Part shown: piece after piece, positions 11,887-49,245 of the stretch
Layout: the number at the start of each line of letters is the position of its first letter
Position numbering within the stretch: position 1 is the stretch's first letter
NCBI GenBank assembly: GCA_947632455.1
Contig: CANRPK010000002.1
Span: 16,683-80,682, forward strand
DNA: 64,000 nucleotides
Reading direction: 5' to 3'
Origin: an uncultured Bacilli bacterium
GTDB lineage: Bacteria > Bacillota_I > Bacilli_A > RF39 > UBA660
The notes under the pieces: generated by a model
Database searches by the model: none
Told to the model about the DNA's origin: nothing
Seen by the model: the letters and a program-made list of their open reading frames with translations, nothing else
Translations under genes and position numbers: made by a program

Positions 11887-12633
11887 TTAGCAACCAGTTT
11901 CATTATCACAAGAATTATCTTCTATTTCTTTAAATAGATCTTTAAAAATTTCTTTTAATTCTTTCTTTTCATCATCATTTAGTCCTAACCATGGATCTGT
12001 TTGACTTTCAACAGTTCCTTCATGGAACCCAACGATTTCTCCATCTTTTACTACCACTACAGTTGGCGCATATAATCTCTTTTCTTTAGTATCATAATCT
12101 TTTTTACCACTTGTTATTTTATATTCAGTTAGATATTCATCTAATTTTTCTAAAATACCATAATAAGCTTCTGTACCTTCTTTAGTATTAACAACTTTTT
12201 TCTTCTTTACTTCAAAAGTTGAACGAATATCTTTAACATCAACATAATATAAATTTTCAAGCTTTGCTTCATCAAAAGTTTCTACTAAAGTCTCAACTAA
12301 ACTACGGCACCAAGGACATGAATTAAAACCAAAATAAATAACTCCTGTACCATTTTCTAATACATCTAATATTTCTTCATCAGTTTTAATTTGTACTGGA
12401 TTATTTTCTTTTAAAGATACTTTTAAATATTCTTTATCACTATCATTAGTTGTGCCATTTAAACTTTCATATTGTTTTTTAAACTCCTTAGAAGATTCTG
12501 TAGCAACTCTTTCTTTTTCTTCAGTTTTATCTTTATCATCATTTCTATCTTGATAATCTAAATAAAACTTTGTACCTATAGCTAAAACTAATACAACCCC
12601 TACAATTAATCCTATTATTCTTTTCTTATCCAT
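11887..12633 (-). CDS. membrane-anchored thioredoxin-fold protein (CxxC)
   Basis: N-terminal TM helix followed by FGFNSCPWCRS (a thioredoxin-like CPWC active site). Confidence 0.6.
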   Translation of the reverse strand: MDKKRIIGLIVGVVLVLAIGTKFYLDYQDRNDDKDKTEEKERVATESSKEFKKQYESLNGTTNDSDKEYLKVSLKENNPVQIKTDEEILDVLENGTGVIYFGFNSCPWCRSLVETLVETFDEAKLENLYYVDVKDIRSTFEVKKKKVVNTKEGTEAYYGILEKLDEYLTEYKITSGKKDYDTKEKRLYAPTVVVVKDGEIVGFHEGTVESQTDPWLGLNDDEKKELKEIFKDLFKEIEDNSCDNETGC

Positions 12634-14680: not shown

Positions 14681-15547
14681 CTATTTTTCTTTTATTATGG
14701 GATGTCTTAATTTTCCATCTTTAGTTTTTTCTAAAAAAGCTACAGTAACTTTCATTTTAGGTTCAATATATATTGCTTCTTCTTTAAAGTTTTCAAAACA
14801 ATTTTTTCCTTGTTTAAACTTTTTTATCTTCTTCATAATATCAGTTTTAGCCCCTACACTTACCTTACCTACATAATATAAACCATTTTTTCTTTTTTCT
14901 CCTAAAAGTAAACTATATTTTTCTTTTTTAAAAATATACCCATGAATATAAAATTCTCCATCTTTAATATTTTTTATCTTAATCCAGCTATCTACCCTCT
15001 TATTTGGTATATATAAACTACTCTTTTCTTTTGCAACTATTCCCTCTAAATTTAATTTTTTTATTGCCCTAAATAATTTTTTACCATCATCATACATAAT
15101 CGTTTTAATAAATATATCTCTATCCGGATATTTGTTTAAAATCTTTTTTCTTTCTATTAATTTTAAATTAGTTATATCTTTATTTTCATATATAATATCA
15201 AAAACCATAAAATAAATAGGAATTTTCTCTTGTATCTCTTTAGTTAAAATTTTTAAATGACTTCGAGTTTGTAATAATTGAAAATTTGGTTTCCCCTTAT
15301 CTAAAGCTATAATTTCTCCATCAAAAATAATCTTATTATTGCCAACTATTTCTTTTATTTTTTCTAATTCTGGATATAAATTAGTTATGTCTTTCCCATT
15401 TCTACTAATTATTTTAAAATAATTTTTACTAACATAAATGAATGCTCGATAACCATCAAATTTTACTTCATAAATAAAATTTTTATCATTAACCACTTTG
15501 CTTTTTTCAACTAAAAGCATTGGTCTTAAATTAAAATCATTAAACAT
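14681..15547 (-). CDS. ligD: ATP-dependent DNA ligase, ligase-domain-only LigD-like NHEJ ligase
   Basis: Adenylation motif I EVKFDGYR. At 288 aa there is no polymerase/primase or phosphoesterase domain. The start overlaps the end of ku. Confidence 0.8.
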   Translation of the reverse strand: MFNDFNLRPMLLVEKSKVVNDKNFIYEVKFDGYRAFIYVSKNYFKIISRNGKDITNLYPELEKIKEIVGNNKIIFDGEIIALDKGKPNFQLLQTRSHLKILTKEIQEKIPIYFMVFDIIYENKDITNLKLIERKKILNKYPDRDIFIKTIMYDDGKKLFRAIKKLNLEGIVAKEKSSLYIPNKRVDSWIKIKNIKDGEFYIHGYIFKKEKYSLLLGEKRKNGLYYVGKVSVGAKTDIMKKIKKFKQGKNCFENFKEEAIYIEPKMKVTVAFLEKTKDGKLRHPIIKEK

Positions 15548-16289
15548 TTTTTAAGCTTAACTCCAAAGCTGTCATTAAATCTTTAATATTTTTGCCTTGT
15601 TTAGCTTTTACTTTCTTAGGCTTTTTACCGTCTAATTTATTACTTATCATTTCTTTAATTTTATCCTGAGCTTCATCTTTTAATTCTTCTGGTTTAAATT
15701 TCATTTTTAAAGAATTAATTAAATCTATTGCTAAGGTCAATTCTTTTTTAGTAAACTTTGCTTCACTCACTTCTTCTGGTATTATAATTTCTTCTAGAAA
15801 ATATAATGTATTCATAATTAAACCATCCTCACTAAGTCTTAAAACTACATAATAAAACTTAGTCCCAATAATTGTTTTCGCTACCGCGACCTTTTTAGTT
15901 GCCTCTAACGCAGCCTTAAATAAACTAAAAGCTTTACTTTTTGTACTTACACTAACAAAATAACTTTTCTCTAAAAATATAGGTTCTATTTCCTTCATAT
16001 CTACAAAACCAACAATTTCAATTACTTTTTCTTCATCGCTTTTAAGCATTTCAAATTCTTCATTACTAATTGTTACATAATCATCTTTTTTATATTGATA
16101 ACCTCTAATAATATCTGCCTGTTTAACTTCTTTCTTACAATGCGGACAATATTTTATATATTTAATTCTAGTTAAACATTTTTTATGTAATTGATTAAAA
16201 GCCACATCATTATTTTTTATTATTGGTCTAATTTCTACAGGAATACTTACTAATCCAAAAGATATAGTCGTTTTTTTCAATCTAACCAC
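15540..16289 (-). CDS. ku: Ku DNA end-binding protein
   Basis: ISFGLVSIPVEI...FNQLHKKC...IRGYQY matches the bacterial Ku core. Has a Lys-rich C-terminal tail. Confidence 0.88.
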   Translation of the reverse strand: MVRLKKTTISFGLVSIPVEIRPIIKNNDVAFNQLHKKCLTRIKYIKYCPHCKKEVKQADIIRGYQYKKDDYVTISNEEFEMLKSDEEKVIEIVGFVDMKEIEPIFLEKSYFVSVSTKSKAFSLFKAALEATKKVAVAKTIIGTKFYYVVLRLSEDGLIMNTLYFLEEIIIPEEVSEAKFTKKELTLAIDLINSLKMKFKPEELKDEAQDKIKEMISNKLDGKKPKKVKAKQGKNIKDLMTALELSLKNV

Positions 16290-31335: not shown

Positions 31336-31737
31336 ATGCATGAAGAATTTTTTACTCTTACTAATTATTTACATAACAATAATGATATAACTTACGCTAT
31401 GGAAGATTATTTAGAAATGCTTTTTCGTAAACAAAAAGATAAACTTACTATTACTAAATTAAGTAAACTTTTAAATATAAAAAAATCATCCTGTAGTAAG
31501 ATGATTTCTAAATTAAAAAATCATAATTTAGTTATAGTTCAAAATAATAATTTACTATTAACTTCTAAAGGTTTAAAAATAGCTAAATATTTATATAAAA
31601 GACATAATATTTTAACTACATTTTTAACTAAATTAAATAAAAATCAATTTTCTTTAGATCAAGTAGAAAAAATAGAACATTTTATTGATCCCATAACTCT
31701 TAAAAATATTGAAAAACTAATTCATAATATAATTTAA
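31336..31737 (+). CDS. DtxR/MntR family metal-dependent repressor (short form)
   Basis: MEDYLEMLF, an HTH (ITKLSKLLNIKKSSCSKMISKL), and LTSKGLKIAKYLYKRHNILTTFL. Confidence 0.75.
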   Translation: MHEEFFTLTNYLHNNNDITYAMEDYLEMLFRKQKDKLTITKLSKLLNIKKSSCSKMISKLKNHNLVIVQNNNLLLTSKGLKIAKYLYKRHNILTTFLTKLNKNQFSLDQVEKIEHFIDPITLKNIEKLIHNII

Positions 31738-32412
31738 TAAAATTGGTGCTAAAATAATTAATAGAATTATCGGAATAAAAAATAATACACTAATAACACT
31801 TATTTTAGTTGGTAATTTAGCTATTTCAGCTTTTACGTCTAATATTTGCTTTTGTCTTAAATAATCTATTTGATTATATAAAGAATCCACTATATTAGTC
31901 CCATAAATATTAGCTTGAACCATATTTAATATTGCATTATTTATTGCCTCACTAGGTATTCTCTTTTTTAAAGCCTCCAAAGCTTCATTAATACTTTTCC
32001 CTAATTTAACTTCATGAAGCATTGTTTTAAATTCTAAAGATATTTCAGAATCTATATTTTCAACTGTTAAATCTAAGGCATGCTTTAAACTTCTACCACC
32101 CTCTAAAGTTAAAACCAAAACTTCAAAAAAGAATATAGCTTCTTTCTCTAACTTTTTTCCTCTTTTTTTGATATTATAATCATAAACAAAATATTCAAAT
32201 AATATATAAAAAATAAGAGCAATAACTGGTGCTAAAATAGCCCCATATTTACAAGTAAATAATATAATAATAAAAATACTTATTACCAAAGCTAATCTTA
32301 TATTTAAAAATGTTTCTACTTTTAAAGCTTTACTACCTAATTTTTTTTCTTTAGCTTCTAATCTTTTAATAGTACTATTTAAATATATTTTATTAATAAA
32401 TGATCTTTTCAT
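31717..32412 (-). CDS. tadC: type II secretion F-domain platform protein, TadC-like
   Basis: T2SSF-type membrane protein. Last gene of the tad operon. Confidence 0.7.
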   Translation of the reverse strand: MKRSFINKIYLNSTIKRLEAKEKKLGSKALKVETFLNIRLALVISIFIIILFTCKYGAILAPVIALIFYILFEYFVYDYNIKKRGKKLEKEAIFFFEVLVLTLEGGRSLKHALDLTVENIDSEISLEFKTMLHEVKLGKSINEALEALKKRIPSEAINNAILNMVQANIYGTNIVDSLYNQIDYLRQKQILDVKAEIAKLPTKISVISVLFFIPIILLIILAPILLNYIMN

Positions 32413-33407
32413 AACTTCACCTCAAGTACTCTTTTGATAATTAAAATATATAGTGTATATAATAAAATTATAAAAACTAAACAAATAATTCCTAAAGGTG
32501 TTTCTACTAAAGGTTTAAAATATAAAGGATTTAATAAAGCAATTATCATAATAAATATAAAAGGTAATAATACTAATAATTTAAATACAAATCTACTAGT
32601 CGCCGTTAAACTATTAAGTTCATTTTTTAAATTCTTTTTATCAAAAAAAGATCTTTCTATTAATGAAAATACTTTTATAATATCTCCACCCGTTTTATTT
32701 AAAAGTGTAAGTGAAGAAGTAATATATTTTGCATCTTCTAATTTAACTCTTTCATAAAATCTTTCAAATACTACATCTAAACTAAGACCATAAGTTATAT
32801 CTAAATATATCTTTTTAAACTCATCTTGAATAGGTCCATCTAGTTCATCCTTAACTACCTCCACCGCTTGCATTATATTTCTACCACTTTTAAAAGCATT
32901 ATTCATAATAATAATTGCTTTTAATAAATCATTTTCAATTCTTTTTCTTTTCTGTTGAAATTTAATTTTTAAATAAATATCTGGAAGTATAAAACTTAAT
33001 AAGAAGGCTATTAGTAATACCATTATATCTATTTTTTCTTTTTGTAAACTAAAAGATAATAATCCTAGTAACATAACTAAGAACGCTAATAAAAACTTAT
33101 ATGCGACAAAAAACATTCCATTTTTCTTTTTTTGAGCTTCATAACTAATATATTTATTATACTTTGTCGCATATTTTGTTAATACTTCTGAATGTCCTAA
33201 TATTTTTGATAATTCTAAAACTAACTTTTCTATTAAAATTTTAAACTTATCTAAAATTGATCCATCATCATCTACTTTGTTAGTATTTATTGCAAATCTA
33301 GCAATTCTTTTTTCTAATTTTAAAACATAAGAAAGTCGAAGTAAATAAACTATTACTCCTAAAATAATTAATATTAAAATGATTTGTAATATTCTTGCTC
33401 CGACCAT
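32409..33407 (-). CDS. tadB: type II secretion F-domain platform protein, TadB-like
   Basis: T2SSF pattern, adjacent to the CpaF ATPase gene. Confidence 0.7.
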   Translation of the reverse strand: MVGARILQIILILIILGVIVYLLRLSYVLKLEKRIARFAINTNKVDDDGSILDKFKILIEKLVLELSKILGHSEVLTKYATKYNKYISYEAQKKKNGMFFVAYKFLLAFLVMLLGLLSFSLQKEKIDIMVLLIAFLLSFILPDIYLKIKFQQKRKRIENDLLKAIIIMNNAFKSGRNIMQAVEVVKDELDGPIQDEFKKIYLDITYGLSLDVVFERFYERVKLEDAKYITSSLTLLNKTGGDIIKVFSLIERSFFDKKNLKNELNSLTATSRFVFKLLVLLPFIFIMIIALLNPLYFKPLVETPLGIICLVFIILLYTLYILIIKRVLEVKL

Positions 33408-33417
33408 TTTAACTCCT

Positions 33418-34845
33418 CTATTCTTTTGGACCTATACCTTCATATTTTCCTCGATAATATAAAGTTTGTACTTTACTATCTTCCTCTAACTTAGGCTTTA
33501 CTTCTTCCGGCTTTTGATAATTAGGATTAAAAATATCTTCAATATCACTAATTCCTCTAGCTAAAATCTTTTTATAAACTCTCGGTATTCCTTCATATAA
33601 AATAAATTCTCCATCAACTTCTCCAGTCTCAGTTAAACCTTTTTGTTTAAAAGCAAATATTTCTTTTAATTTAATTTCACCATCATTTAAACCTTCAAGT
33701 TCACATATACTTGTAATCTTTCTTTTTCCATCCCCCATTCTTTCAATATTAACTACTAAATCTATAGCACTAATAATATACTCTCTTACAGCTTTAACTG
33801 GAATATCCATGCCTCCCATTAAAACCATTGTTTCTAATCTATTTAAAGCATCTATTGGTCCATTTGCATGCATTGTCGTAAGTGAACCTTCATGTCCCGT
33901 ATTCATTGCTTGTAGCATATCAAAAGCTTCTTTACCTCTTACTTCTCCGACAATTATTCTATCAGGCCGCATTCTAAGACTATTAATAACTAAATCTCTA
34001 ATGGTTATCTCATTATTACCTGCATAATTAGTAGTCCTAGTCTCCAAAGATATTACATGCCCTTGTTCTAATTTTAATTCCGCGGCATCTTCAATCGTTA
34101 TAATTCTTTCATTTTCCCCAATAAAACCACTTAAAATATTTAAAAGTGTTGTTTTACCTGAACCAGTACCTCCACAAATAATCATATTTAACTTTCCTCT
34201 AACCGCTGCATCCAAAAATCTAGCCATATAAGGAGTTAATGTTCCCACTCTAATTAATTCATCAATACTGCTCATTGATTCTTTGAATTTTCTAATAGTA
34301 ACTACTGGCCCTTTCGTTGAAAGTGGTGGAATAACCGCATTAATTCTTGAACCATCTAATAACCTAGAATCCACCATCGGATTAGAAGCATCTATTGTTC
34401 TTCCTAAAGGTTGAATAAGTCTTTGTACTGTTCTAATAATATGCTCATCATTAATAAAAGACACACTATCATCTCTACTTATTACTCCATCTATTTCTAT
34501 ATATATTTCATTAGGAGAATTAATCATAATTTCGGTAATATTTTTACTATTTAATAATTCTGTAATAGGTCCATATCCATTAATTTCATTATCAATTAAA
34601 TTATATAAATGACTTCTCTCTAAATTCGATAAATCATATCCTTCAATCGTTTTATCAATTAAATCATTAATCCATTCATTTAAAGTTGTATCATTAGGCA
34701 TTTCTCGATCAATTAAATTTTCTACAATTTCCGTTCTTAATTTATCTAATAATTTTTTATCTTTAAATATTTCATAATCACTAATTATATTTACTTTAGT
34801 TTCTTTACTTTTTATATCAAAAGCATCTCTTAAACTTTGTTTCAT
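33418..34845 (-). CDS. tadA: CpaF/TadA family secretion ATPase
   Basis: Walker A GGTGSGKTT, Asp/His boxes (IITIEDAAEL, RMRPDRIIVGEVRG, TGHEGSLTTMHAN). Confidence 0.92.
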   Translation of the reverse strand: MKQSLRDAFDIKSKETKVNIISDYEIFKDKKLLDKLRTEIVENLIDREMPNDTTLNEWINDLIDKTIEGYDLSNLERSHLYNLIDNEINGYGPITELLNSKNITEIMINSPNEIYIEIDGVISRDDSVSFINDEHIIRTVQRLIQPLGRTIDASNPMVDSRLLDGSRINAVIPPLSTKGPVVTIRKFKESMSSIDELIRVGTLTPYMARFLDAAVRGKLNMIICGGTGSGKTTLLNILSGFIGENERIITIEDAAELKLEQGHVISLETRTTNYAGNNEITIRDLVINSLRMRPDRIIVGEVRGKEAFDMLQAMNTGHEGSLTTMHANGPIDALNRLETMVLMGGMDIPVKAVREYIISAIDLVVNIERMGDGKRKITSICELEGLNDGEIKLKEIFAFKQKGLTETGEVDGEFILYEGIPRVYKKILARGISDIEDIFNPNYQKPEEVKPKLEEDSKVQTLYYRGKYEGIGPKE

Positions 34846-35606
34846 GCTTCTACCCCTTCATTATACATATCACTAATAAGTTGCATTAAAGATGTATAAT
34901 CTCTACTAAATAAAATTGGCATTTTATCATCTAAAGTAATTATCTTTCCATCCATAATTATACTATCAATATTTTTAATATAAAAATCTTTAGAAATAAC
35001 ATAATCAACATTAGAATTAATAATATTTTTTATATCATATAAACTAAAATATTTCCTAAATGGATAAATACTTTCATTTAATACTATTTTATAATTATTA
35101 TAATTAATATCTTTTAATATAGTTAAAATACTTCGCATATTCTTTAAATCTAAAGGATCATTAGTAACTAAAAATATTAACTTATCTACTAAATCCATGA
35201 CTGAAATATTAATATCATTTAATATATGACTAGTATCTATTAAAACAATATCATAATTATATACTGCTTTATCAATTACTAATTCTACATATTTAGCATC
35301 AATCTTATTAGCTTGTCTAGGATCTTTAGGACTAGCTAAAACATCTATATAATTATCATATTTTGTAATATAATCTTTAAAATCTTTATAACGATTATTA
35401 TTATAATCATCTATAAAATTATAAATACTTTTATTAACATTTACATTTAAAGATGTAGCAATTCCCCCACTAGCTAAATCAAAATCAATAATTAATACTT
35501 TTTTTTCTAAAGTCTCATATAACCCCGCTAAATTTAAAGTAGTAATTGTTTTTCCTACTCCTCCTTTTGCTGATGTTATACATATTGCTATACCCTTACT
35601 ATTCAT
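34842..35606 (-). CDS. tadZ: ParA/MinD-type ATPase, CpaE/TadZ-like
   Basis: Deviant Walker A SAKGGVGKT. Preferred start is ATG 35604-35606 behind GGGTGA. Confidence 0.75.
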   Translation of the reverse strand: MNSKGIAICITSAKGGVGKTITTLNLAGLYETLEKKVLIIDFDLASGGIATSLNVNVNKSIYNFIDDYNNNRYKDFKDYITKYDNYIDVLASPKDPRQANKIDAKYVELVIDKAVYNYDIVLIDTSHILNDINISVMDLVDKLIFLVTNDPLDLKNMRSILTILKDINYNNYKIVLNESIYPFRKYFSLYDIKNIINSNVDYVISKDFYIKNIDSIIMDGKIITLDDKMPILFSRDYTSLMQLISDMYNEGVEA

Positions 35607-35620
35607 ATATTCACCCACTT

Positions 35621-35992
35621 TTATTCAATCATAATTTTGTTATTTAATTTATACCCCATAACATCTACTTTTATTTTATAACTATCTATTCCAATAATAT
35701 TTCCAAAAATACTTTCTATTTCTATTTCATTTCTAATTCTTATTTTATCATTATTTATATCAACTTTTAAATTAGTTATATCTATATTATTTTCTTTAAA
35801 TAGTTTTTCTATTTTATCTTGTTTATTTTCTTCATCAATTACATCTTTTATTATCATTCTACTTACATTTTCTAATTTAGCATGAGCATTACTAATAACT
35901 CCAATATCAACTACAAAAGCCCACATCATAATTATTAAAGGAATAAATATTATAAATAAAATTAATACTTGTCCATTTTTATCCAGTCTCAT
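35621..35992 (-). CDS. TadG/TadE-like pseudopilin (Tad_N type N-terminus)
   Basis: Has an MRLDKNG-QVLILF leader and hydrophobic segment, followed by DIG, as in TadG N-termini. Confidence 0.55.
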   Translation of the reverse strand: MRLDKNGQVLILFIIFIPLIIMMWAFVVDIGVISNAHAKLENVSRMIIKDVIDEENKQDKIEKLFKENNIDITNLKVDINNDKIRIRNEIEIESIFGNIIGIDSYKIKVDVMGYKLNNKIMIE

Positions 35993-36317
35993 TTAAAATA
36001 CTCCTTGATACTTCTATTTTATAAGGATTTTTAAGTATTAAATTTAATCCTGGTGTTATAATACTAATATTTTTATAAATAGTTAAATTTGTTAAAGTAT
36101 CTTCCTTTTTTACATCAATCTCTTCTATATCTAACTTATTTTTAATATTTTCTTGAGACTCACCCTTCTTATATAAATCTACTACATCACTTATTTGATC
36201 TTCCAATCTAATTTTCATATAAAAAAGTTTACCTATATCAAAAACTCCTAATAAAAGGATTAAAAACACCGGTAATATTATAATAAATTCAACTAATGCT
36301 TGCCCTTTTTTTTTCAT
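35979..36317 (-). CDS. tadE: TadE-like pseudopilin
   Basis: MKKKG-QALVEFIIILPVF carries the G/xxxxEF processing motif of TadE. Confidence 0.7.
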   Translation of the reverse strand: MKKKGQALVEFIIILPVFLILLLGVFDIGKLFYMKIRLEDQISDVVDLYKKGESQENIKNKLDIEEIDVKKEDTLTNLTIYKNISIITPGLNLILKNPYKIEVSRSILNETG

Positions 36318-36340
36318 TTTTTACCCCTTTTAAGTGCCAG

Positions 36341-36532
36341 TTAATCTCCCTTACATTTTCCCTCGCCAGGTTTATCACCTTTTATATATTCTTCATCAAC
36401 AAGGCTGCAAGAAGTTTTAGTTAAAGCATCTTTTAAATACCCACCAAAATAATTAACAAGTGCAATCGCAATAACACTAATTAAAGCCACGATAAGTATA
36501 TATTCCACTAATGCCTGACCGCGCTTATTCAT
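36341..36532 (-). CDS. flp: Flp family type IVb pilin (63 aa)
   Basis: MNKRG-QALVEYILIVALISVIAIA carries the Flp G/xxxxEY motif. Preferred start is ATG 36530-36532 behind GGGTGAGGG. Confidence 0.8.
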   Translation of the reverse strand: MNKRGQALVEYILIVALISVIAIALVNYFGGYLKDALTKTSCSLVDEEYIKGDKPGEGKCKGD

Positions 36533-36555
36533 AACCCTCACCCTTATCATAATTA

Positions 36556-36646: not shown

Positions 36647-36979
36647 ATGTTTATAAGAACAAATAAAAAAAAGTATAACATTATTTTAGCCGACACTTTT
36701 TCTAAAAGATTAAAAGGTCTTATGGGTAAAACCAATATTGATTATGGTATGCTTTTTCCAAATTGTAATTCTATTCATACTTATTTTATGAAAGAAAATA
36801 TAGATATAATTGGTTTAAATTCTAATAATGAAGTAATATATAAATATGAAAATCTAGATAAAAATCGTATTATTAAAATAAATAATGATCATAAAAAAAC
36901 TAGCATTTTAGAAATGCCAGCTAATTCTACTAAAAAAATTGCTATTGGTACTATCCTAATATTTAATGAAGATGCTTAA
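36647..36979 (+). CDS. DUF192 (COG1430) family protein
   Basis: ADTFSKRLKGLMGK...GMLFPNCNSIHTYFM...IDIIGL fits the DUF192 signature. Confidence 0.7.
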   Translation: MFIRTNKKKYNIILADTFSKRLKGLMGKTNIDYGMLFPNCNSIHTYFMKENIDIIGLNSNNEVIYKYENLDKNRIIKINNDHKKTSILEMPANSTKKIAIGTILIFNEDA

Positions 36980-38277: not shown

Positions 38278-39018
38278 TTATTCAGCAATTTTTATATCTT
38301 CATACGTATTTAAAACATCTCTTTTAGCTTTACCATCTTCATAATAATATTTACATTCTACTAAAGATATTTTATCTTCTTCTACTAAAGGCTCTAATAC
38401 ATATATTTGTCCATCTTCATATTTAGCTAATATTTGTTCACTATCATCATAAAATATTTGTAAATCAGTAATATAGTAAACACTTTCATCTTTAATAACC
38501 GCTCCATTAGGAACTAATAAATCTCCTAAATCATCAAATAAGAAATAAAAACTTTTATTATAATTACCATAACAATTAATCTCTAATAAAATATAATCTT
38601 TATCTTCAATTTTAATTATTTGAATATCATCTATATTTAATTTTATATTATTTATATCTTCATTAGAAAATACTTCTTCCGCTGAAACATCCTCAATATC
38701 TAATTTAGAAATTATATTTTCATTAATAATATTTCCTCCATCAAAATACACTAATAATTCTAAAAAACCTTCATTCAATTCTTTTTCTAATTGAACTTTA
38801 TATTCAAATTTAATCTTATGTCTTTGTCCATTTAAATATACATTATAAAGTTCAGCTAAAACATTACCATTAAAATTACTACTAACAAGTTCAATAACTT
38901 CTCCCTGAGAATTAACTACATCTCTTCTAACTCCCCGAGAATTTAAAGTATAAACAGTTATTCCAATTATTCCTGATAATGCAATAATGCCAATGATTAA
39001 ACTTAGTATTTTTTTCAT
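38278..39018 (-). CDS. hypothetical N-terminally anchored extracytoplasmic protein (246 aa)
   Basis: Signal/anchor MKKILSLIIGIIALSGIIGITVY. No known motif. Confidence 0.5.
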   Translation of the reverse strand: MKKILSLIIGIIALSGIIGITVYTLNSRGVRRDVVNSQGEVIELVSSNFNGNVLAELYNVYLNGQRHKIKFEYKVQLEKELNEGFLELLVYFDGGNIINENIISKLDIEDVSAEEVFSNEDINNIKLNIDDIQIIKIEDKDYILLEINCYGNYNKSFYFLFDDLGDLLVPNGAVIKDESVYYITDLQIFYDDSEQILAKYEDGQIYVLEPLVEEDKISLVECKYYYEDGKAKRDVLNTYEDIKIAE

Positions 39019-39070
39019 AAAGCTAAACTCCTAACACCATTATTATATCAATAAACATTATTTTTTAAAA

Positions 39071-39097
39071 CAAAAAAAATCACTAAATTGTGATTTA
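39071..39097 (-). terminator. terminator closing the upstream pilin-like operon
   Basis: Minus strand reads AAATCAC-aattta-GTGATTT followed by TTTTTTT. It overlaps the stop codon of ORF 39095. Confidence 0.65.
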
Positions 39098-40090
39098 CTT
39101 AAATATATTAAATAATTTATTTTTGTTAGAACCATTTCCGCTAAGTCTTGAAAAACCTAAAGATATTAAGAAATCATCTAAGATTGGTTCTCTTTCTTTC
39201 TTATCATCTAAATAAGGTATACTAAAGAATACTTTACTATTAACCTCATTTTCAAAATCATTAACATCTTTATTAGTAAGAATACTCTTATTTAAAACAA
39301 TCTTTTTATCTTTTAATTTCTCAAATATTTCTCGATCATTTCTTACTAACTTATTAAGCTTAATTAATCCCGGTTCAATTAAATATATTACTTCATTACA
39401 TAATTCATTATGAATAGAATCATTTAAATCAACCAAAATTACTTCAGCTTCTGGATTATTGGCAATATTAAATGATAAATCATTATCTAAAGTTGTCTTT
39501 AAACTTTTATCATTAAAATATCTAAAATCTTCTCTATTTACTTCTAATGCCACTACATTGTAAGCCACTTCTAAATGTCTTTTTAACATATATATTAAAG
39601 TTGTAGCTCCAGCATGAGCTGTAACATTTCTAAAACCAATAATTCGAAGTCCTCCACTGCCTGTTCCAGAAAAAGTATCAAATTCCACTAGACTAACATC
39701 ATCTGAATTACTTAAATTGTGATATTGAGCTACATCTTTATATGAATTAGGATTATCAATCAAAAATTTAACTGCATTTATATTTCTTGTAAAATTATAA
39801 ATTCCCATAGATACTAATTGCGATAAATATCCCCCACTATTAACCATTGCTGAATCATCTAATAATAAAATTACTTTATTCATATCAAAATTAACAGATA
39901 ATTTTTGAATATTTTTTATATTTTGATAATCTTTTATTGCAGTTATATCAATAATCATTTTATTAAAGTAAAAATTTGTAAATTGTTTAACTAAATCTTC
40001 AATTTCAAATTCCCCATTAATACTCTTTATCACATCTATATCTAAAGTAGATAATAAATTTTGATATTTATTAGAAACAATTACATTCAT
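39095..40090 (-). CDS. TadZ/CpaE-like protein with a degenerate P-loop (receiver-like N-domain plus ParA-like C-domain)
   Basis: The segment IIGFRNVTAHAGATTLIYMLKRHL sits where ParA/MinD proteins carry KGGxGKTT, followed by a hhhhD (VILVDLN) Walker-B-like strand. The N-terminal ~110 aa have an alternating beta-alpha pattern. Assignment is by pattern only. Confidence 0.4.
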   Translation of the reverse strand: MNVIVSNKYQNLLSTLDIDVIKSINGEFEIEDLVKQFTNFYFNKMIIDITAIKDYQNIKNIQKLSVNFDMNKVILLLDDSAMVNSGGYLSQLVSMGIYNFTRNINAVKFLIDNPNSYKDVAQYHNLSNSDDVSLVEFDTFSGTGSGGLRIIGFRNVTAHAGATTLIYMLKRHLEVAYNVVALEVNREDFRYFNDKSLKTTLDNDLSFNIANNPEAEVILVDLNDSIHNELCNEVIYLIEPGLIKLNKLVRNDREIFEKLKDKKIVLNKSILTNKDVNDFENEVNSKVFFSIPYLDDKKEREPILDDFLISLGFSRLSGNGSNKNKLFNIFK

Positions 40091-40092
40091 TT

Positions 40093-40575
40093 TTATCCTC
40101 CTATTACTGCACTATACATAGCTCCATCAGAATCCAAGAAATTTGATGTTGTTCCTCTTACATTAAAACCAGCCGCAGTTCCAATAATTGGTAAATTAAA
40201 TTTATAGAAAACTCCAACTTGATAATATGTTGTTGACTTTATTCCTCTATATTTTTGAATACAATAATAATATTTAGCCCCAGGACGAGCCTGCTCTAAA
40301 TTAGTACTAGATAAAGACAAACCTCCATAAACTCCTCTTTTAGTACTTTTTGTACAAACTCCCGTCGCACTATAACCATTATATCTTAAATAATTATTTA
40401 TTAGAGCCACAGAAGTTTCATTTAAGCCTTCATATTTTTCTATGATACTCACAACTTCATTTTTTACTCTTATTGTCTTTGAATAATTAATTGTTAAAAT
40501 TATAAAAGCTACAAATAAGAATATAAATGTTATCATTAAACCCATTAACCATGAGCCACCTATTGAAGATCGCAC
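40093..40575 (-). CDS. TadE-sized pseudopilin-like protein B (160 aa)
   Basis: GTG start behind AGGTGA. Has an MRSSIGG leader and a 22-aa hydrophobic helix. Paralog of ORF 40585 (shared INYSK..VKNE..I and YYQV..FY..LPII blocks). Confidence 0.5.
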   Translation of the reverse strand: MRSSIGGSWLMGLMITFIFLFVAFIILTINYSKTIRVKNEVVSIIEKYEGLNETSVALINNYLRYNGYSATGVCTKSTKRGVYGGLSLSSTNLEQARPGAKYYYCIQKYRGIKSTTYYQVGVFYKFNLPIIGTAAGFNVRGTTSNFLDSDGAMYSAVIGG

Positions 40576-40584
40576 TTATATCAC

Positions 40585-41094
40585 CTACCTACACCATTCA
40601 TAATTAGCTGCTTGATATTCACATTCATTTGGTGCGTAAATTCTGGCAGTTTCACCCATAACTGATAAGTTAAACACTGATTTAATTATTGGTAAATCTA
40701 ATTGATAAAAAAGCTTTACTTGATAATACAAGGCATTAGGAAGTTCCGAATTACCATTAAGTCTAATTGCTTTAACACAAAATGCTGCATTTTGAGCGCC
40801 TTTACCAATTAATTCTCCATTTCTTCTATATCCATACCAATCACTATCACATCTACCTTGACTATGATATGAAACATCTCCAAAATAATCACTTATTTGT
40901 TCAGCAAAATTATAACAAATACCAACACTTCGATCAGTACATACTCCCCCTTGATTTTTTATAATATTTACAATTTCATTTTTAACATTATATGCCTTAG
41001 AATAATTAATTGATAAACTAATATAACCGGCAAAAAGTAACACTAAAGCAATAACAAGTCCAAATAAAGAAACACCGCCGACTGACTCTCTCAT
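40585..41094 (-). CDS. TadE-sized pseudopilin-like protein A (169 aa)
   Basis: Has an MRESVGG leader and a hydrophobic helix. Contains 6 Cys. Paralog of ORF 40093. Confidence 0.5.
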   Translation of the reverse strand: MRESVGGVSLFGLVIALVLLFAGYISLSINYSKAYNVKNEIVNIIKNQGGVCTDRSVGICYNFAEQISDYFGDVSYHSQGRCDSDWYGYRRNGELIGKGAQNAAFCVKAIRLNGNSELPNALYYQVKLFYQLDLPIIKSVFNLSVMGETARIYAPNECEYQAANYEWCR

Positions 41095-41107
41095 TACCTC
41101 ACCTAAA

Positions 41108-41362
41108 TTAACCTTTCCATGGACACATAATTTTTTGACTAGGATGACCTTTTACATAACACTCTACTAAGCCATCTGTCACAATACAATTTCCATTTGA
41201 ATCACGATTGGTACAAGTACAGATTGCTTCATTACAACTAGCATTTCTTTTAAAACTTCCTCTAATACTTGGCCAAATTACTGTAAAGAAAAAAAGAGAC
41301 AACCCAGCAACTATTGTCACAACAATAATAGTCATATTAAGTTCGCCTTGTGCCTCTTTCAT
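41108..41362 (-). CDS. Cys-rich small pilin-like protein 3 (84 aa)
   Basis: MKEAQG-ELNMTIIVVTIVAGLSLFFFTVIWPSI followed by a 6-Cys C-terminal domain. Has its own RBS AGGAGG. Confidence 0.6.
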   Translation of the reverse strand: MKEAQGELNMTIIVVTIVAGLSLFFFTVIWPSIRGSFKRNASCNEAICTCTNRDSNGNCIVTDGLVECYVKGHPSQKIMCPWKG

Positions 41363-41379
41363 TTTTCTTTCCTCCTATT

Positions 41380-41634
41380 TTATGTAGTTGTTGCACTATT
41401 ATCTGGATTTGGACAAGTTATAGGTTGAGTACTTATTTGTCCATTATCATCGATGTAGTAGCAAGAACAAGTCTTTCCTGAGCAAGTACATGACGAAGTA
41501 TTTGCACATTGATTATTTCTTTGAATTGTAGTTTTTATACTTGGCCATACAAAAGCATAAAAGAATGCTGCTACAGCTGCAATAGCAACTACTGTAATAA
41601 CGGTCATATTTAATTCTCCAGTAGCTTCCTTCAT
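41380..41634 (-). CDS. Cys-rich small pilin-like protein 2 (84 aa)
   Basis: MKEATG-ELNMTVITVVAIAAVAAFFYAFVWPSI followed by a 6-Cys domain. RBS AGGAGGG. Confidence 0.6.
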   Translation of the reverse strand: MKEATGELNMTVITVVAIAAVAAFFYAFVWPSIKTTIQRNNQCANTSSCTCSGKTCSCYYIDDNGQISTQPITCPNPDNSATTT

Positions 41635-41650
41635 TTATTATTCCCTCCTT

Positions 41651-41899
41651 TTATGTTGTCGCAGTATTATCCGGATTTGGGCACGTTACAGGTCCCGCCT
41701 CTTGTCCATTATCGTCAATATAATAACATGAACATGTTTTACCGTTACATGTACAAGATGAAGTATTTGCACATTGATTATTTCTTTGAATTGTAGTTTT
41801 TATACTTGGCCATACAAAGGCATAAAAGAATGCTGCTACAGCTGCAATAGCAACTACTGTAATAACAGTCATATTTAATTCTCCAGTAGCTTCCTTCAT
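41651..41899 (-). CDS. Cys-rich small pilin-like protein 1 (82 aa)
   Basis: Its first 141 nt differ from protein 2 at only 2 positions. The C-terminal 6-Cys domain is diverged. RBS AAGGAGG. Confidence 0.6.
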   Translation of the reverse strand: MKEATGELNMTVITVVAIAAVAAFFYAFVWPSIKTTIQRNNQCANTSSCTCNGKTCSCYYIDDNGQEAGPVTCPNPDNTATT

Positions 41900-41930
41900 T
41901 TACCATTCCTCCTTTTATTTTTCTATAAAC

Positions 41931-41959
41931 ATTATAACCAATTTTAATTAAAATATCAA
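41931..41959 (-). promoter_or_regulatory. promoter of the Cys-rich/pseudopilin operon
   Basis: Minus strand reads TTGATA, a 17-nt spacer, then TATAAT. Confidence 0.6.
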
Positions 41960-42051: not shown

Positions 42052-42702
42052 ATGAAAGAACAAATTATAAATTTCTTTAAAGGCTTAGGTACCATATTTC
42101 TTTACTTTTTTCTAGCCGCCGTAGGTTATATATTATTTAAAGACTATTATACTAGCTCTAATATTATAGTCTCATCATTATCTCAATTAGGTACTTACAT
42201 AATAATTTTAATTGGCTTATGTATTGTTTATCATGAAAGATTAATTGAAGATTTTCAAAACTTTAAAAAAGAAAACTTAAAAATTGCTCTTAAATATTGG
42301 CTTATTGGTCTAGGAGTTATGTTAGCAACCAATCTTGTAATTAATTCCATTATTCATACCATTCCCGCTAATGAAAGTGCTAATCGTGAATTTTTAGCCC
42401 AATTTCCTTTAAGTGGTCTTTTAATTGTTGCCATCATTGGTCCTATTACTGAAGAATTAACTTTTAGAGCTAGCTTTAAAAATGCATTCAAAAATTGGTT
42501 ACCATTTTGTCTTGTTACTGCCTTCTTCTTTGGCTTAGCCCATATTGCTGAACCAAACTTATTAGAACTCCTATATATCATCCCTTATGGAGCTCTAGGT
42601 TTCTTCTTTGCTAAAGCTTTTTATGAAACAGATAATATATATTCTTCAATATTTATTCATATGTTACATAATACTCTAGCCGTATTACTAATATCTATTT
42701 AA
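42052..42702 (+). CDS. CPBP family intramembrane glutamic endopeptidase (CAAX protease/Abi type)
   Basis: EELTFR, FGLAH and HMLHN motifs within a polytopic protein. Confidence 0.8.
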   Translation: MKEQIINFFKGLGTIFLYFFLAAVGYILFKDYYTSSNIIVSSLSQLGTYIIILIGLCIVYHERLIEDFQNFKKENLKIALKYWLIGLGVMLATNLVINSIIHTIPANESANREFLAQFPLSGLLIVAIIGPITEELTFRASFKNAFKNWLPFCLVTAFFFGLAHIAEPNLLELLYIIPYGALGFFFAKAFYETDNIYSSIFIHMLHNTLAVLLISI

Positions 42703-42711
42703 GAGGTCAAT

Positions 42712-43536
42712 ATGAAAAAAAATGAAAATAAAAAAAAGCACCCTATATTTACATTTATAAGTATTCTAATTATTTTAATATTTGTTATCTTTTTATATGG
42801 TTATTATATTGAACCTTATAATTTAAAAATAAAAGAAATTCCTATATATAATAAAAGTTTAATAAAGGATTATAATGGTCTTAAAATAGCCCACTTTTCT
42901 GATTTACATTATGGCCGCACTACCAATGAAAAAGAACTTAAAAAAATTGTCAATGAATTAAATAAATTAAGACCAGATATTGTTATTTTTACTGGTGATT
43001 TATTTGATAGTAAAAAATTAGCCGAAGATAATGCCCAATTAGTAACAAAGTATTTTAACCAAATAGAAGCTAATCTAGCTAAATATGCTATAATTGGTGA
43101 TTATGATACTAAATATTTACCTACTTATAATACTATATTAGAAAATTCTTCTTTTACTCTTTTAGATAATGAAGCAAATTTAATATATTATAAAAGTACT
43201 ACTCCTATTAATATAATTGGTTTAACAGACACTAGCAATATCAAAGATTTATACGATAATGACTATTTTAATATTACCATTATTCATAAACCAGATGATG
43301 TTTCTAAATTATCTAACACTAAACTTGTTTTCGCTGGTCATTCTTTAGGAGGCCAAATAAAAATTCCATTTTTAGGCGGAATTAAAAAAATATCTGGTGC
43401 TAATAAATATTTAGAAGAACATTATAAAATAAAAGATATTGATCTATATATATCTAATGGCTTAGGTACACAAGATTTTAGTTTTAGATTATTTAACACC
43501 CCTTCTATTACTTTATATAGATTATATAATTCCTAA
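42712..43536 (+). CDS. membrane-anchored metallophosphoesterase (YkuE-like)
   Basis: IAHFSDLHYG, FTGDLFD, GDYD, and GHSLGGQ in place of GHTHGGQ. Confidence 0.75.
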   Translation: MKKNENKKKHPIFTFISILIILIFVIFLYGYYIEPYNLKIKEIPIYNKSLIKDYNGLKIAHFSDLHYGRTTNEKELKKIVNELNKLRPDIVIFTGDLFDSKKLAEDNAQLVTKYFNQIEANLAKYAIIGDYDTKYLPTYNTILENSSFTLLDNEANLIYYKSTTPINIIGLTDTSNIKDLYDNDYFNITIIHKPDDVSKLSNTKLVFAGHSLGGQIKIPFLGGIKKISGANKYLEEHYKIKDIDLYISNGLGTQDFSFRLFNTPSITLYRLYNS

Positions 43537-47433: not shown

Positions 47434-47784
47434 TTAGTCCTTTGGTTCAAAAAATATTGTTAAAACTACCGCGAATATTACCGCCCCAACTATAGCCGCT
47501 CCTCCATTAGTTAAAATTCCTGTAAATATTCCTAATATTCCTTTACTTTGATATCCTTCAATTCCCCCTTTATATAATAAATATCCAAAGTTAGAAATTA
47601 TTGTAGAAGCTCCCCCTCCAGCTAACTTAATTAATTTATCATAGATACCTAAAAATCCTAAAATAGCTCCTAACACTGTAAACATTGAAGTAACATGTCC
47701 TGGTGTTAATTTTGTATTATCTAAAATAAGCTGGGCCACTAAACAAAATAAACCCGCGACTATAAAAGCCCATATAAAAGTCAT
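47434..47784 (-). CDS. spoVAE: stage V sporulation protein AE
   Basis: 116-aa polytopic protein of SpoVAEb type, third gene after spoVAC and spoVAD. Confidence 0.8.
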   Translation of the reverse strand: MTFIWAFIVAGLFCLVAQLILDNTKLTPGHVTSMFTVLGAILGFLGIYDKLIKLAGGGASTIISNFGYLLYKGGIEGYQSKGILGIFTGILTNGGAAIVGAVIFAVVLTIFFEPKD

Positions 47785-48758
47785 TATAATACCTCCAAAC
47801 TAACCGCATGAGCAATTCCTGGAATACCTAATTTTTGATTAGCCATAGTTACAGATTGTAAAGACCCTGTGGCTATTATTAATATTTTTTTATATTTTTT
47901 AGAATTTAATATTTTATCAAATAAAACTAAAGGTAACGCTACTGGTCCACTAGCCCCAGCATACGTTTCTTGACTATTAGTATAGATTTCACATCCAGCA
48001 TCCATATATTTTTTTAATTTAATATCATGTACTTTATCAAGCATCTCCAAAAATATTTCCTTTCCAACTTTTCCTAAATCTCCAGTTAATATTAAATCAT
48101 AATAATTAGCACTACGTTTCATTTCATTTAAATGGGTAACTAAAGTCTTAACTGCCGCTGGAGCCATAACTGCTCCCATATTATTTGTATCAGTTATTCC
48201 CATATCAACACTTTCCCCTATTGTTGCACTTTCAATTTGAATATTAGTTTTTTCATTTGTAAGTAAAGTTGCTACTGCACCAGTCGTAGTAAAAGTACTT
48301 GTATGCTTTTTAATTGCCCCGTATTCTATCGGATATCTAAATTGTCTTTCAGCATTTAAATTATGACTACTAGTTACATTTACTACTCTCTTAGCTAGTT
48401 TACCACTAATAAAAGTTGAAGCTACAATCAATTCTTGAGCAAAAGTACTACAAGCACTATATAATCCTAAATAAGGTATTTTAAATTTTGCCGCATTATA
48501 ACTACTAACACTAACTTGATTTGTTAAATCTCCTCCAATTAATAAATCAATCTTACTATCTGTTAATTTATTATAATTTAAAAGATTATCTACCACTACT
48601 TGTTGCATTTTTATTTCTGCTTGTTCAAATGTTTTTTCACCATAATAATAATCATCAATAGCTAAATCATAATTATTTAAAAGTCCATCTTTTTCTAAAG
48701 GTCCAACCAAAGAAAAATAATCTTTTAAATAAACATTATTAAATTTTTTACTAGCCAT
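47784..48758 (-). CDS. spoVAD: stage V sporulation protein AD
   Basis: Thiolase-like SpoVAD pattern, 324 aa, flanked by spoVAC and spoVAE. Confidence 0.85.
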   Translation of the reverse strand: MASKKFNNVYLKDYFSLVGPLEKDGLLNNYDLAIDDYYYGEKTFEQAEIKMQQVVVDNLLNYNKLTDSKIDLLIGGDLTNQVSVSSYNAAKFKIPYLGLYSACSTFAQELIVASTFISGKLAKRVVNVTSSHNLNAERQFRYPIEYGAIKKHTSTFTTTGAVATLLTNEKTNIQIESATIGESVDMGITDTNNMGAVMAPAAVKTLVTHLNEMKRSANYYDLILTGDLGKVGKEIFLEMLDKVHDIKLKKYMDAGCEIYTNSQETYAGASGPVALPLVLFDKILNSKKYKKILIIATGSLQSVTMANQKLGIPGIAHAVSLEVL

Positions 48759-49188
48759 TAATCATCACCTTCACAATCACTAATATAAAAGCACTTACTA
48801 TTCCATATAAAATAACACTTCCAGCTAATTTAAAAAAATTTGATCCTAACCCAGTAACTAAGCCTTCTTTTTTATAATCTAAAGCACTACTTGATACAGA
48901 ATGAGCAAATCCTGTTGTTGGTAATAATAATCCTGCTTTAGCTTTACACATCCAATTATCAAAAAAACCTAATGCTGTAAATAATGATGATACAAATATT
49001 ACAATTAAACAAGTCCATGTACTAGCATCTACTCTTGAAATATTTAAAATTCCCATTAATAATTGAATTATGCCCTCCACTAAAAAGCCAATCATTCCTC
49101 CCGTTAAAAATGCAAATAAAGCATTTTGGGTTTTATTTTCTTGGGGTTCATGCTTTTTTACTAACTTTTGATATTCATCTTTATTCAT
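48751..49188 (-). CDS. spoVAC: stage V sporulation protein AC
   Basis: TTGFAHSVSSSALDYKKEGLVTGLGSNFFKLAGSVILYG closely parallels Bacillus SpoVAC. Preferred start is ATG 49186-49188 behind GGAGG. Confidence 0.85.
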   Translation of the reverse strand: MNKDEYQKLVKKHEPQENKTQNALFAFLTGGMIGFLVEGIIQLLMGILNISRVDASTWTCLIVIFVSSLFTALGFFDNWMCKAKAGLLLPTTGFAHSVSSSALDYKKEGLVTGLGSNFFKLAGSVILYGIVSAFILVIVKVMING

Positions 49189-49245
49189 AATAACCTCCAC
49201 TCTTATTATGAAATAAATAAAAAAAGTTATACACAAAAAAAGTAC

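Follow-up and report, generated by a model that had tools for sequence, protein, structure and literature searches.

The Tad (type IVc) pilus is built with a CpaB/RcpC-family protein, a TadA/VirB11-type ATPase, two polytopic membrane proteins (TadB and TadC), the ParA-like protein TadZ, very small Flp subunits and TadE-like proteins. In type IVa prepilins such as Pseudomonas PilA (MKAQKG/FTLIE, the slash marking the processing site), a basic leader (+2) precedes the site, and Phe at +1 and Glu at +5 are conserved. Here we describe a six-gene cassette at 41899-39095 on the minus strand of a 64,000-nucleotide stretch of DNA (the window) from an uncultured Bacilli bacterium of the RF39 lineage (contig CANRPK010000002.1, positions 16,683 to 80,682). 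We consider it rather probable that the cassette is the subunit half of an uncharacterised Tad-like system of the type IV filament superfamily in gut and rumen Bacilli, and that it is parted from its motor here. Literature searches for a Tad-like or type IV secretion system (T4SS)-linked pilus in Firmicutes, and for DUF5411, a family encoded beside relatives of the cassette, retrieved only one computational mention, in which an operon of CpaF, PilC/GspF and DUF5411 in Roseburia, Ruminococcus and Eubacterium was predicted by machine learning to be secretion-related (Miller et al. 2022, PMC9523054). That operon and the system described below both place DUF5411 beside a Tad-type ATPase in gut Firmicutes, together with a large surface-protein gene. 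Unlike the present system, however, it contains a recognisable PilC/GspF and an internalin-like protein, and the paper describes no MKEATGELN subunits or TadZ-like protein.

The six open reading frames (ORFs) that an initial annotation of the window had assigned to one operon are all present, tightly packed on the minus strand and each preceded by a Shine-Dalgarno-like sequence. Two small pilin-like proteins of 82 amino acids (aa; 41651-41899) and 84 aa (41380-41634) begin with MKEATG/ELNMT, which in the 82-aa protein leads into a ca. 22-residue hydrophobic helix, a WP motif and a Cys-rich, hypervariable tail. Their genes (41380-41899) are a recent tandem duplication, the first 53 residues being identical and only the Cys-rich tails differing. 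A small protein of a second type (84 aa; 41108-41362; MKEAQG/ELNMT) is a paralogue of the 82-aa protein (38% identity, E = 1.7e-19). Most relatives have one copy of the 82-aa type and one of the MKEAQG type, and the latter is single-copy in nearly all related loci. Next come two medium, minor-pilin-like proteins of 169 aa (40585-41094; MRESVG/GVSLF, with conserved Cys pairs) and 160 aa (40093-40575; MRSSIG/GSWLM), which are paralogous as had been proposed (33% identity, E = 2.5e-22). The 160-aa gene starts with GTG; an AGGTGA ribosome-binding site, and orthologues that begin MR..IG from ATG, back the 160-aa length and the MRSSIGG terminus. Public gene calls start it at Met11, giving 150 aa. 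The last gene encodes a TadZ-like two-domain protein of 331 aa (39095-40090; hereafter Z331). Pfam and NCBIfam scans gave no significant match for any of the six proteins or for the 246-aa product of the neighbouring gene, and the operon indeed has no ATPase or platform of its own.

Relatives of Z331 are numerous. Clustering at 90% identity gives more than 6,490 family clusters and at 50% leaves 471 representatives, and relatives occur in at least 448 species genomes. No member has a Pfam domain save one listed 455-aa match with ABC-transporter/SMC domains. The hosts are mostly uncultured gut or rumen Bacilli, labelled 'Bacilli bacterium', 'Tenericutes', 'Mycoplasma sp. CAG:776', Candidatus Caccenecus, Onthocola or Ventrenecus. 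Taking one genome per species, we fetched 80 loci and mapped all of their ORFs with phmmer; since the 47 diverse members of the family alignment A1 varied too much for this locus scan, a closer alignment (A2) was used there. Relatives with 77-86% identity share the arrangement of the window: PAP2, then a divergent pair of metallophosphoesterase and CPBP protease genes, then small, small, medium, medium, Z331 and the gene for the 246-aa protein (p246), and usually Obg. Relatives with 58-67% identity have a longer, full-type order of E251, E1041, DUF5411, E268, ATPase, E297, E262, small, small, medium, medium and Z331, followed by E126 (loci L005-L006 and L034-L087). The cassette has such a Tad-like neighbourhood in most relatives, and in all full-system loci the ATPase and two polytopic membrane proteins, E297 and E262, are encoded directly upstream of the cassette, the latter two in the positions of TadB and TadC. 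The ATPase matches T2SSE (E = 2.5e-29), VirB11 (4e-33) and the TadA-family model TIGR03819 (4e-29) and is 27% identical to the TadA of the window, and E268 matched RcpC/CpaB in all 11 members tested (best E = 2e-8; TIGR03177, E = 5.7e-8). The cassette is, then, one half of a larger, self-contained and widespread system, the motor half of which is missing at the window site.

This system works most like the Tad pilus. The two have in common the CpaB/RcpC-family protein, the TadA/VirB11-type ATPase with a pair of polytopic membrane proteins after it, major subunits of very small size (51-58 aa in a distant lineage), medium proteins with a TadE-like layout, a two-domain TadZ-like protein, and a short M-[KR]-x-x-x-G leader that runs at once into a hydrophobic helix. 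Yet it fails the Flp/TadE processing motif, the T2SSF platform, the Walker A of TadZ and the presence of tadV in the locus. The cassette proteins lack G/XXXXEY and have a neutral or acidic leader, and the system gives no match to Flp_Fap, TadE or T2SSF models; the TadZ-like protein is without both P-loop lysines, and its gene stands after the pilin genes rather than before the ATPase; tadV was found in none of the loci; and in the window the motor is absent from the operon. Conserved parts found here in addition to those of Tad are DUF5411, the T4SS-pilin-like E126 and a giant Cys-rich surface protein.

E126, which follows Z331 in nearly all full systems (L005, 11061-11441; L044, L060 and L068), is a ca. 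120-aa two-helix protein with a weak match to T4SS_pilin/Mbov_0395 (T4SS_pilin, E = 3e-4). It is present in one to five copies downstream of Z331, with tandem arrays of up to five, and it is kept even in lineages without T4SS genes. Full-type loci often continue with VirB6-like, VirB3-like, TraC-like, VirB4, M23-lysozyme and VirD4 genes, and one further family, E748, weakly matches VirB6-like models of the Mycoplasma integrative and conjugative element (ICE). Many full-system loci run directly into genes of the kind that make up Gram-positive and Mycoplasma-ICE T4SSs (VirB4, VirD4, the VirB6-like MMCAP2_0566 and the pilin-like Mbov_0395), but the five cassette proteins are single-pass and not VirB2-like hairpins. 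The window and several full-system lineages lack T4SS genes, which therefore do not belong to the conserved core. A distant rumen lineage, fetched from metagenomes with a 468-aa family member as the query (its 331-aa proteins being 43-48% identical to the query), has a core of DUF5411, CpaB-like protein, ATPase, E297, E262, small, medium, Z331 and E126, and no T4SS genes. Its small protein has the size of Flp (51-58 aa) and a Cys-free, N/S/T-rich tail, and it still begins with MKEASGELNMT. The context of another distant representative, P0323, was a 3.6-kb contig and uninformative.

Several further genes accompany the full systems. E1041, a secreted and very Cys-rich protein of 1,040-1,160 aa, is encoded at the start of full-system loci (L005, 1159-4284; L089, 1476-4958 and 6721-9981). 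E251 has ca. 250 aa, a signal peptide and a C-terminal anchor, and E251 and E1041 are sometimes duplicated along with the CpaB-like gene. Neither gave a family match, and a role as adhesins or tip proteins is possible. Two full-system lineages have a sortase gene immediately after that of the 331-aa protein (L091, 17088-17816; L092, 16958-17674). Membrane-anchored thioredoxin-like proteins with a CSHC motif are encoded on the minus strand at the start of some loci (L034, 1-327; L053, 3-350; L044, 1-126), and a similar protein is encoded within the window at 11887-12633; the flanking genes are consistent with extracellular disulfide formation in the Cys-rich components.

The window-type arrangement is derived. 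When a neighbour-joining tree of Z331 was rooted on the rumen lineage, the 25 window-type sequences grouped in a single clade, which is nested inside three successive full-type sister groups, so that its ancestor lost or relocated the seven upstream genes together with the E126/T4SS genes. The full-type locus of L005 adjoins the same metallophosphoesterase-CPBP pair as the window cassette (L088), and the two types thus occupy the same site. All six ORFs are intact in about 25 window-type species, in which the N-terminal motif is fully kept. The ratios of non-synonymous to synonymous substitution rates (dN/dS) in these species were 0.10 for Z331, 0.23 and 0.29 for the 169- and 160-aa proteins and 0.19 for the N-terminal part of the small proteins, all below those of full-type loci; dS is saturated at about 1.2, which makes the ratios approximate. 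The window-type cassette is under purifying selection and is not decaying. Since it is maintained in this way without a local motor, it must draw on one whose genes lie at another site. Within the window, the sole T2SSE-type motor is that of a canonical Flp/Tad operon at 31717-36550 (minus strand), which comprises flp, tadE, a gene for a 123-aa TadE-like protein, a 258-aa TadZ with KGGVGKT, TadA, TadB and TadC, and which lies 2.5 kb downstream of the cassette beyond p246, Obg and a DUF192 gene. As the sole visible candidate, this machine could possibly be used by the cassette in trans.

An AlphaFold model of Z331 (predicted local distance difference test, pLDDT, 86.7; predicted TM-score, pTM, 0.57) consists of two alpha/beta domains, a receiver- or flavodoxin-like N-domain and, after a variable linker, a MinD/ParA-like C-domain. 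When the model was compared with the PDB by Foldseek, the sole full-length two-domain match was 3fkq, the TadZ of Eubacterium rectale (E = 1.2e-4, probability 1.00; ca. 12% identity); both domains were matched, and the TM-score was only ca. 0.33 because the domain orientation in the model is uncertain. Other strong matches were MinD, ParA, FleN and HypB, over the C-domain, and IcmF, in which a Rossmann-like domain is likewise joined to a SIMIBI G-domain. A profile of the family found no relative among PDB sequences, no Pfam or NCBIfam model matched (those of ParA, CbiA and AAA_31 included), and the link to the 258-aa TadZ of the window is weak and located around Walker B (BLASTP, E = 6e-5; hhalign, E = 7.5e-4). 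The initial annotation had taken Z331 for a TadZ/CpaE with a receiver-like and a ParA-like domain; the domain layout is supported, and membership of the TadZ family by sequence is not.

The replacement of Walker A by TAHAGATT, which had also been pointed out, is located in the model at the P-loop position, in the loop between the strand 149-155 and the helix 162-173. Across the family alignment the C-domain consensus is GxKNxTxHAGATT, with no lysine at either P-loop position, unlike the KGG-type deviant Walker A of the E. rectale protein. A Glu (E183) and an Asp (D221, in a motif of a hydrophobic strand followed by D-L-N) are invariant, and the N-domain is conserved and followed by a linker that is variable and often of low complexity. 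The C-terminus is a conserved amphipathic KLFNIFK (as in the window) or RVFGLFRR, which by analogy may correspond to the membrane-targeting helix of MinD. The canonical TadZ of the window has an intact KGGVGKT in its ParA-like domain and no receiver-like N-domain, and Z331 has the opposite combination of an N-domain and a dead P-loop. The predicted structure supports a TadZ-like architecture with a lysine-less P-loop.

The other five products, encoded by adjacent genes at 41899-40093, share an N-terminal M[KR][ES][AS]xG followed by a ca. 22-residue hydrophobic helix, as had been reported (MKEATGE, MKEATGE, MKEAQGE, MRESVGG and MRSSIGG). When all ORFs of at least 40 aa in the window were scanned for M[KR]xxxG followed by at least 19 hydrophobic or small residues in 22, exactly these five were found and no other. 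The N-terminus of the small proteins is near-invariant: among 132 distinct N-termini from about 110 loci, the frequencies were M 100%, K 96%, E 92%, A 93%, T 75%, G 94%, E 93%, L 96%, N 98%, any residue, and T 91%. Gly occupies position 6 in 94% of the small, 79% of the 169-aa-type and 91% of the 160-aa-type N-termini, with Ser or Gln otherwise. DUF5411 has a related N-terminus (MKESYWGYWLI) and an acidic C-flank (-2.3), which predicts a C-out orientation. When DUF5411 was compared with the medium family by hhalign, only the first 21 residues aligned, so that common descent is not shown beyond the signal. The five proteins behave as one class with a common N-terminal signal. They resemble type IVa prepilins in the six-residue leader ending in Gly, the immediate alpha-1 helix, a Pro ca. 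22-25 residues in, and the pairing of a conserved N-terminus and a C-terminus that varies. They differ from them in that the leader contains Glu3 and the mature end would begin with Glu or Gly.

The small proteins also vary as pilins do, with a conserved N-terminus and a tail whose length and sequence are hypervariable (dN/dS of 0.19 for the N-terminal part versus 0.49-0.67 for the tail), and the tandem duplication of their gene into multiple copies is likewise pilin-like. An AlphaFold2 model of the 169-aa protein (pLDDT 80.9, pTM 0.70) has a 45-residue N-terminal helix (4-48), a helix at 58-73 and a five-strand sheet, and in the medium proteins one Cys pair is invariant and two more are nearly so. 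Some relatives have medium-protein ORFs of 330-518 aa instead of ca. 165 aa, representing fusions or large C-terminal extensions (L063, 7979-9523; L069, 7967-9523; L080, 908-2464; L081, 228-1745; L019, 8992-9984; L023, 7016-8128; L025, 1785-2801; L027, 8675-9688). In the working model that we favour, the small proteins would be the major subunits, whose invariant N-terminal helices pack and whose hypervariable, here Cys-rich, tails are exposed, and the two medium paralogues would be minor or initiating subunits. Z331 would act as a TadZ-like MinD/ParA scaffold dead in ATP hydrolysis, probably binding the membrane via its C-terminal amphipathic helix and recruiting or positioning the motor. The motor itself would be encoded elsewhere, the canonical Tad operon being the candidate in sight.

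A number of observations weigh against this model. No pilin family model (N_methyl, Flp_Fap, TadE, Pilin_N or ComG) matches any of the five proteins; the sole pilin-model match, to the archaeal Pilin_N, was below the cut-off (E = 0.025-0.06, in three of 16 members; E = 0.055 for the 82-aa protein), and a Foldseek search of the PDB with the 169-aa model gave neither a pilin nor anything significant (best E = 0.59). The mature N-termini had been said to lack the Glu at +5, and this is so: position 11 is Thr in 91% of the small and Phe or Leu in the medium proteins, and the small proteins have Glu at +1. Even Gly6 is not fixed: some second-copy small proteins have Ser or Gln at this position, and a whole subclade of the medium protein has Ser. 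Also as described, the signal (G/ELNMTV and G/GVSLFG) is distinct from that of the window's own flp (G/QALVEY) and tadE (G/QALVEF), and neither the G/XXXXEY motif of Flp nor the G/XXXXEF motif of TadE/F occurs in the cassette proteins. The mean net charge of the N-flank is -0.9 in the small and 0.02 and 0.35 in the medium proteins, that is, neutral or acidic, and the C-flank is basic (+0.65 and +1.1 to +1.5, respectively). This is the reverse of the Flp/TadE-family proteins of flanking Tad operons in the same loci, whose N-flank charges are +2.9 (Flp), +2.7 (TadE) and +1.6 (123-aa TadE-like). By the positive-inside rule, the cassette proteins could thus have an N-out topology. Between the helix of the small proteins (N.T....AIA..A.FF..VWP.I) and the anchor at the N-terminus of F-ATPase subunit b there is a weak likeness (PDB 7p2y_b, E = 0.24; NCBIfam, E about 0.05), which is probably convergent but bears on topology.

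E297 and E262 had no T2SSF match in Pfam, and hhalign against the TadB and TadC of the window was not significant, so that 'platform' here denotes gene position and membrane topology only. Downstream sequence of at least 8 kb was available for 14 window-type species, of which seven have the Tad operon there and seven do not; the proposal that the cassette feeds the adjacent Tad machine has no conserved synteny behind it. A regular-expression search for the A24 peptidase motif GxGDxK gave no real match among the ORFs of the window and the first 87 loci. The initial annotation had seen in the five proteins the geometry of class III (prepilin) signals. The short leader ending in Gly and the helix that follows at once are present in all five, but the leader is not of the charged class III type (-0.9 to +0.35). 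Of its broader claim of a second, non-Flp class of prepilins with a degenerate TadZ, the genomic context backs candidate filament subunits and a TadZ-like protein, whereas a canonical prepilin signal, and with it canonical prepilin status, is not supported by the sequences. We have clearly less confidence in cleavage after Gly6, and in Tad as the motor, than in the identity of the system.

The character of the leader gives room to a different account of its maturation, in which M[KR]E[AS]xG is a sorting or maturation signal for a CPBP/Rce1-like glutamic protease acting at the cytoplasmic membrane face, rather than for an A24 peptidase, and the proteins may still be subunits. Such a protease (PF02517, E = 1e-15) is encoded divergently from the cassette at 42052-42702 (plus strand), with its catalytic motifs EELTFR, FGLAH and HMLHN intact, and is always accompanied by a membrane-anchored metallophosphoesterase (42712-43536, plus strand). 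The pair flanks the cassette in every window-type locus with an upstream flank present (26 loci and the window) and also the full systems L005/L088, L036, L045, L050, L091, L092 and L093. Although the outer flanks vary (TyrS-FtsW-PTS-CotZ, PAP2-ScpAB or others), the pair remains beside the system in either arrangement, which makes the CPBP protein a candidate maturation enzyme; the lack of an A24 motif in the window and the first 87 loci and a leader that is unusually conserved and not basic, unlike those of A24 substrates, point the same way. A universal linkage was ruled out, however, as other genes are the upstream neighbours in L034, L053 and L044 (a thioredoxin-like gene), in L055 and in the distant L096, and the CPBP-linked loci all come from one bacterial lineage, so that inherited synteny can explain the adjacency. 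Moreover, the window's Tad operon contains no prepilin peptidase gene, and since this genome's canonical Flp and TadE need processing by an enzyme from another locus, it must have an A24 enzyme somewhere. We therefore regard this account as unlikely, if worth keeping in view. Much the same doubt attaches to the proposal that the five proteins are uncleaved bitopic machine components, possibly N-out/C-in like F-ATPase subunit b, with a docking N-terminus and Cys-rich tails that bind metal in the cytoplasm. The charges on the two flanks point to N-out (small, -0.9/+0.65; medium, 0 to +0.35/+1.1 to +1.5), pilin matches are absent both by sequence and by fold, and beside the weak likeness to the subunit-b anchor there is a weak match to a FeoB-associated Cys-rich membrane protein family (E = 0.006-0.01). 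Nevertheless, tails that are hypervariable, and Cys-free and N/S/T-rich in the distant lineage, are typical of exposed regions and not of cytoplasmic metal sites. The Cys pairs of the medium proteins suggest disulfides, a membrane-anchored CxxC thioredoxin-like gene lies beside some loci, DUF5411 shares the N-terminal signal with a C-flank that predicts C-out, and several tandem small-subunit copies are a trait of pilins.

A bolder combination of these ideas is that MKEATGELN defines a new class of type IV filament-subunit signal, neutral or acidic and without Glu at +5, which is matured by a non-A24 enzyme (the CPBP protein being the leading candidate) or left uncleaved, and that the cassette is separable from its motor and served in trans by Tad; in this full form we hold it to be doubtful. 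Far less credible is that the cassette is a functionless, decaying remnant of a conjugative element or a lost pilus system. The motor and T4SS genes that flank it in relatives are indeed missing here, and many full systems adjoin VirB4, VirD4 and VirB6-like genes related to Mycoplasma ICE proteins, but the six ORFs are intact in about 25 window-type species with the motif fully retained, and a pseudogenised remnant is ruled out by dN/dS values (0.10-0.29) that lie below those of full-system loci. It is also most improbable that the small Cys-rich proteins are bacteriocin-like peptides with the CPBP (Abi-type) protein as an immunity or processing factor. CPBP/Abi proteins are often bacteriocin immunity proteins, and the tails give weak knottin- or defensin-like matches (E 0.005-0.1). 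However, neither a double-glycine nor any other bacteriocin leader is present, a C39 or ABC exporter is lacking, the six-residue leader runs straight into a membrane helix of 22 residues, Cys-free versions exist, and the genes are in strict synteny with those of the CpaB-like, ATPase and TadZ-like proteins. On balance, the reading of the cassette as the subunit half of a Tad-like system is the one that we retain.

The expression signals of the cassette are less distinct than had been proposed. The promoter-like site TTGATA-17-TATAAT (41931-41959, minus strand), which precedes the first small gene, is the best match of the region (11 of 12), but promoter-like sites in this AT-rich DNA are at the level of shuffled sequence (31 versus 29.8 expected). 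At the other end, a hairpin and U-run do follow the 331-aa gene (39069-39096, minus strand), but the 7-bp AU-rich stem is weak (-5.7 kcal/mol, z = -1.36) and was not called by a terminator scan, so that it represents at most a possible leaky terminator. Just past it, an extended -10 promoter-like site (TTTAAA-16-TATAAT with TG; 39042-39069, minus strand) precedes p246 (38278-39018, minus strand), and this gene may thus be a transcription unit of its own. The membrane-anchored, 246-aa p246 follows the cassette in the window-type clade only and evolves fast (dN/dS 0.61), and its membership in the cassette is uncertain. A relation of p246 to the CpaB-like family was not found by hhalign.

Among the remaining neighbours, the DUF192 gene (36647-36979, plus strand) between Obg and flp is present in all Tad-bearing related loci and absent in the Tad-less L007 and L032; since its presence tracks the Tad operon, it may belong to the Tad module. 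Adjacent genes for a LigD-like ATP-dependent DNA ligase and Ku (14681-16289, minus strand), identified from their translations alone, suggest non-homologous end joining. Together with a SpoVA operon at 47434-49236, they are notable for a small Bacilli genome of the gut with 25% G+C.

If the reading of the cassette as the subunit half of a Tad-like system is correct, at least 448 species genomes, mostly of uncultured gut and rumen Bacilli, would possess a surface-filament system that escapes the current models of pilins, platforms and TadZ, and its hypervariable exposed tails would suggest a role in host, phage or cell-cell interaction. The window-type clade would then represent a natural experiment, in which only the subunits and the TadZ-like scaffold are kept, under strong constraint. 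It would bear on the swapping of type IV filament subunits between motors, and on which parts of the class III signal (the basic leader, Gly at -1, Glu at +5 and the A24 peptidase) are really obligatory.

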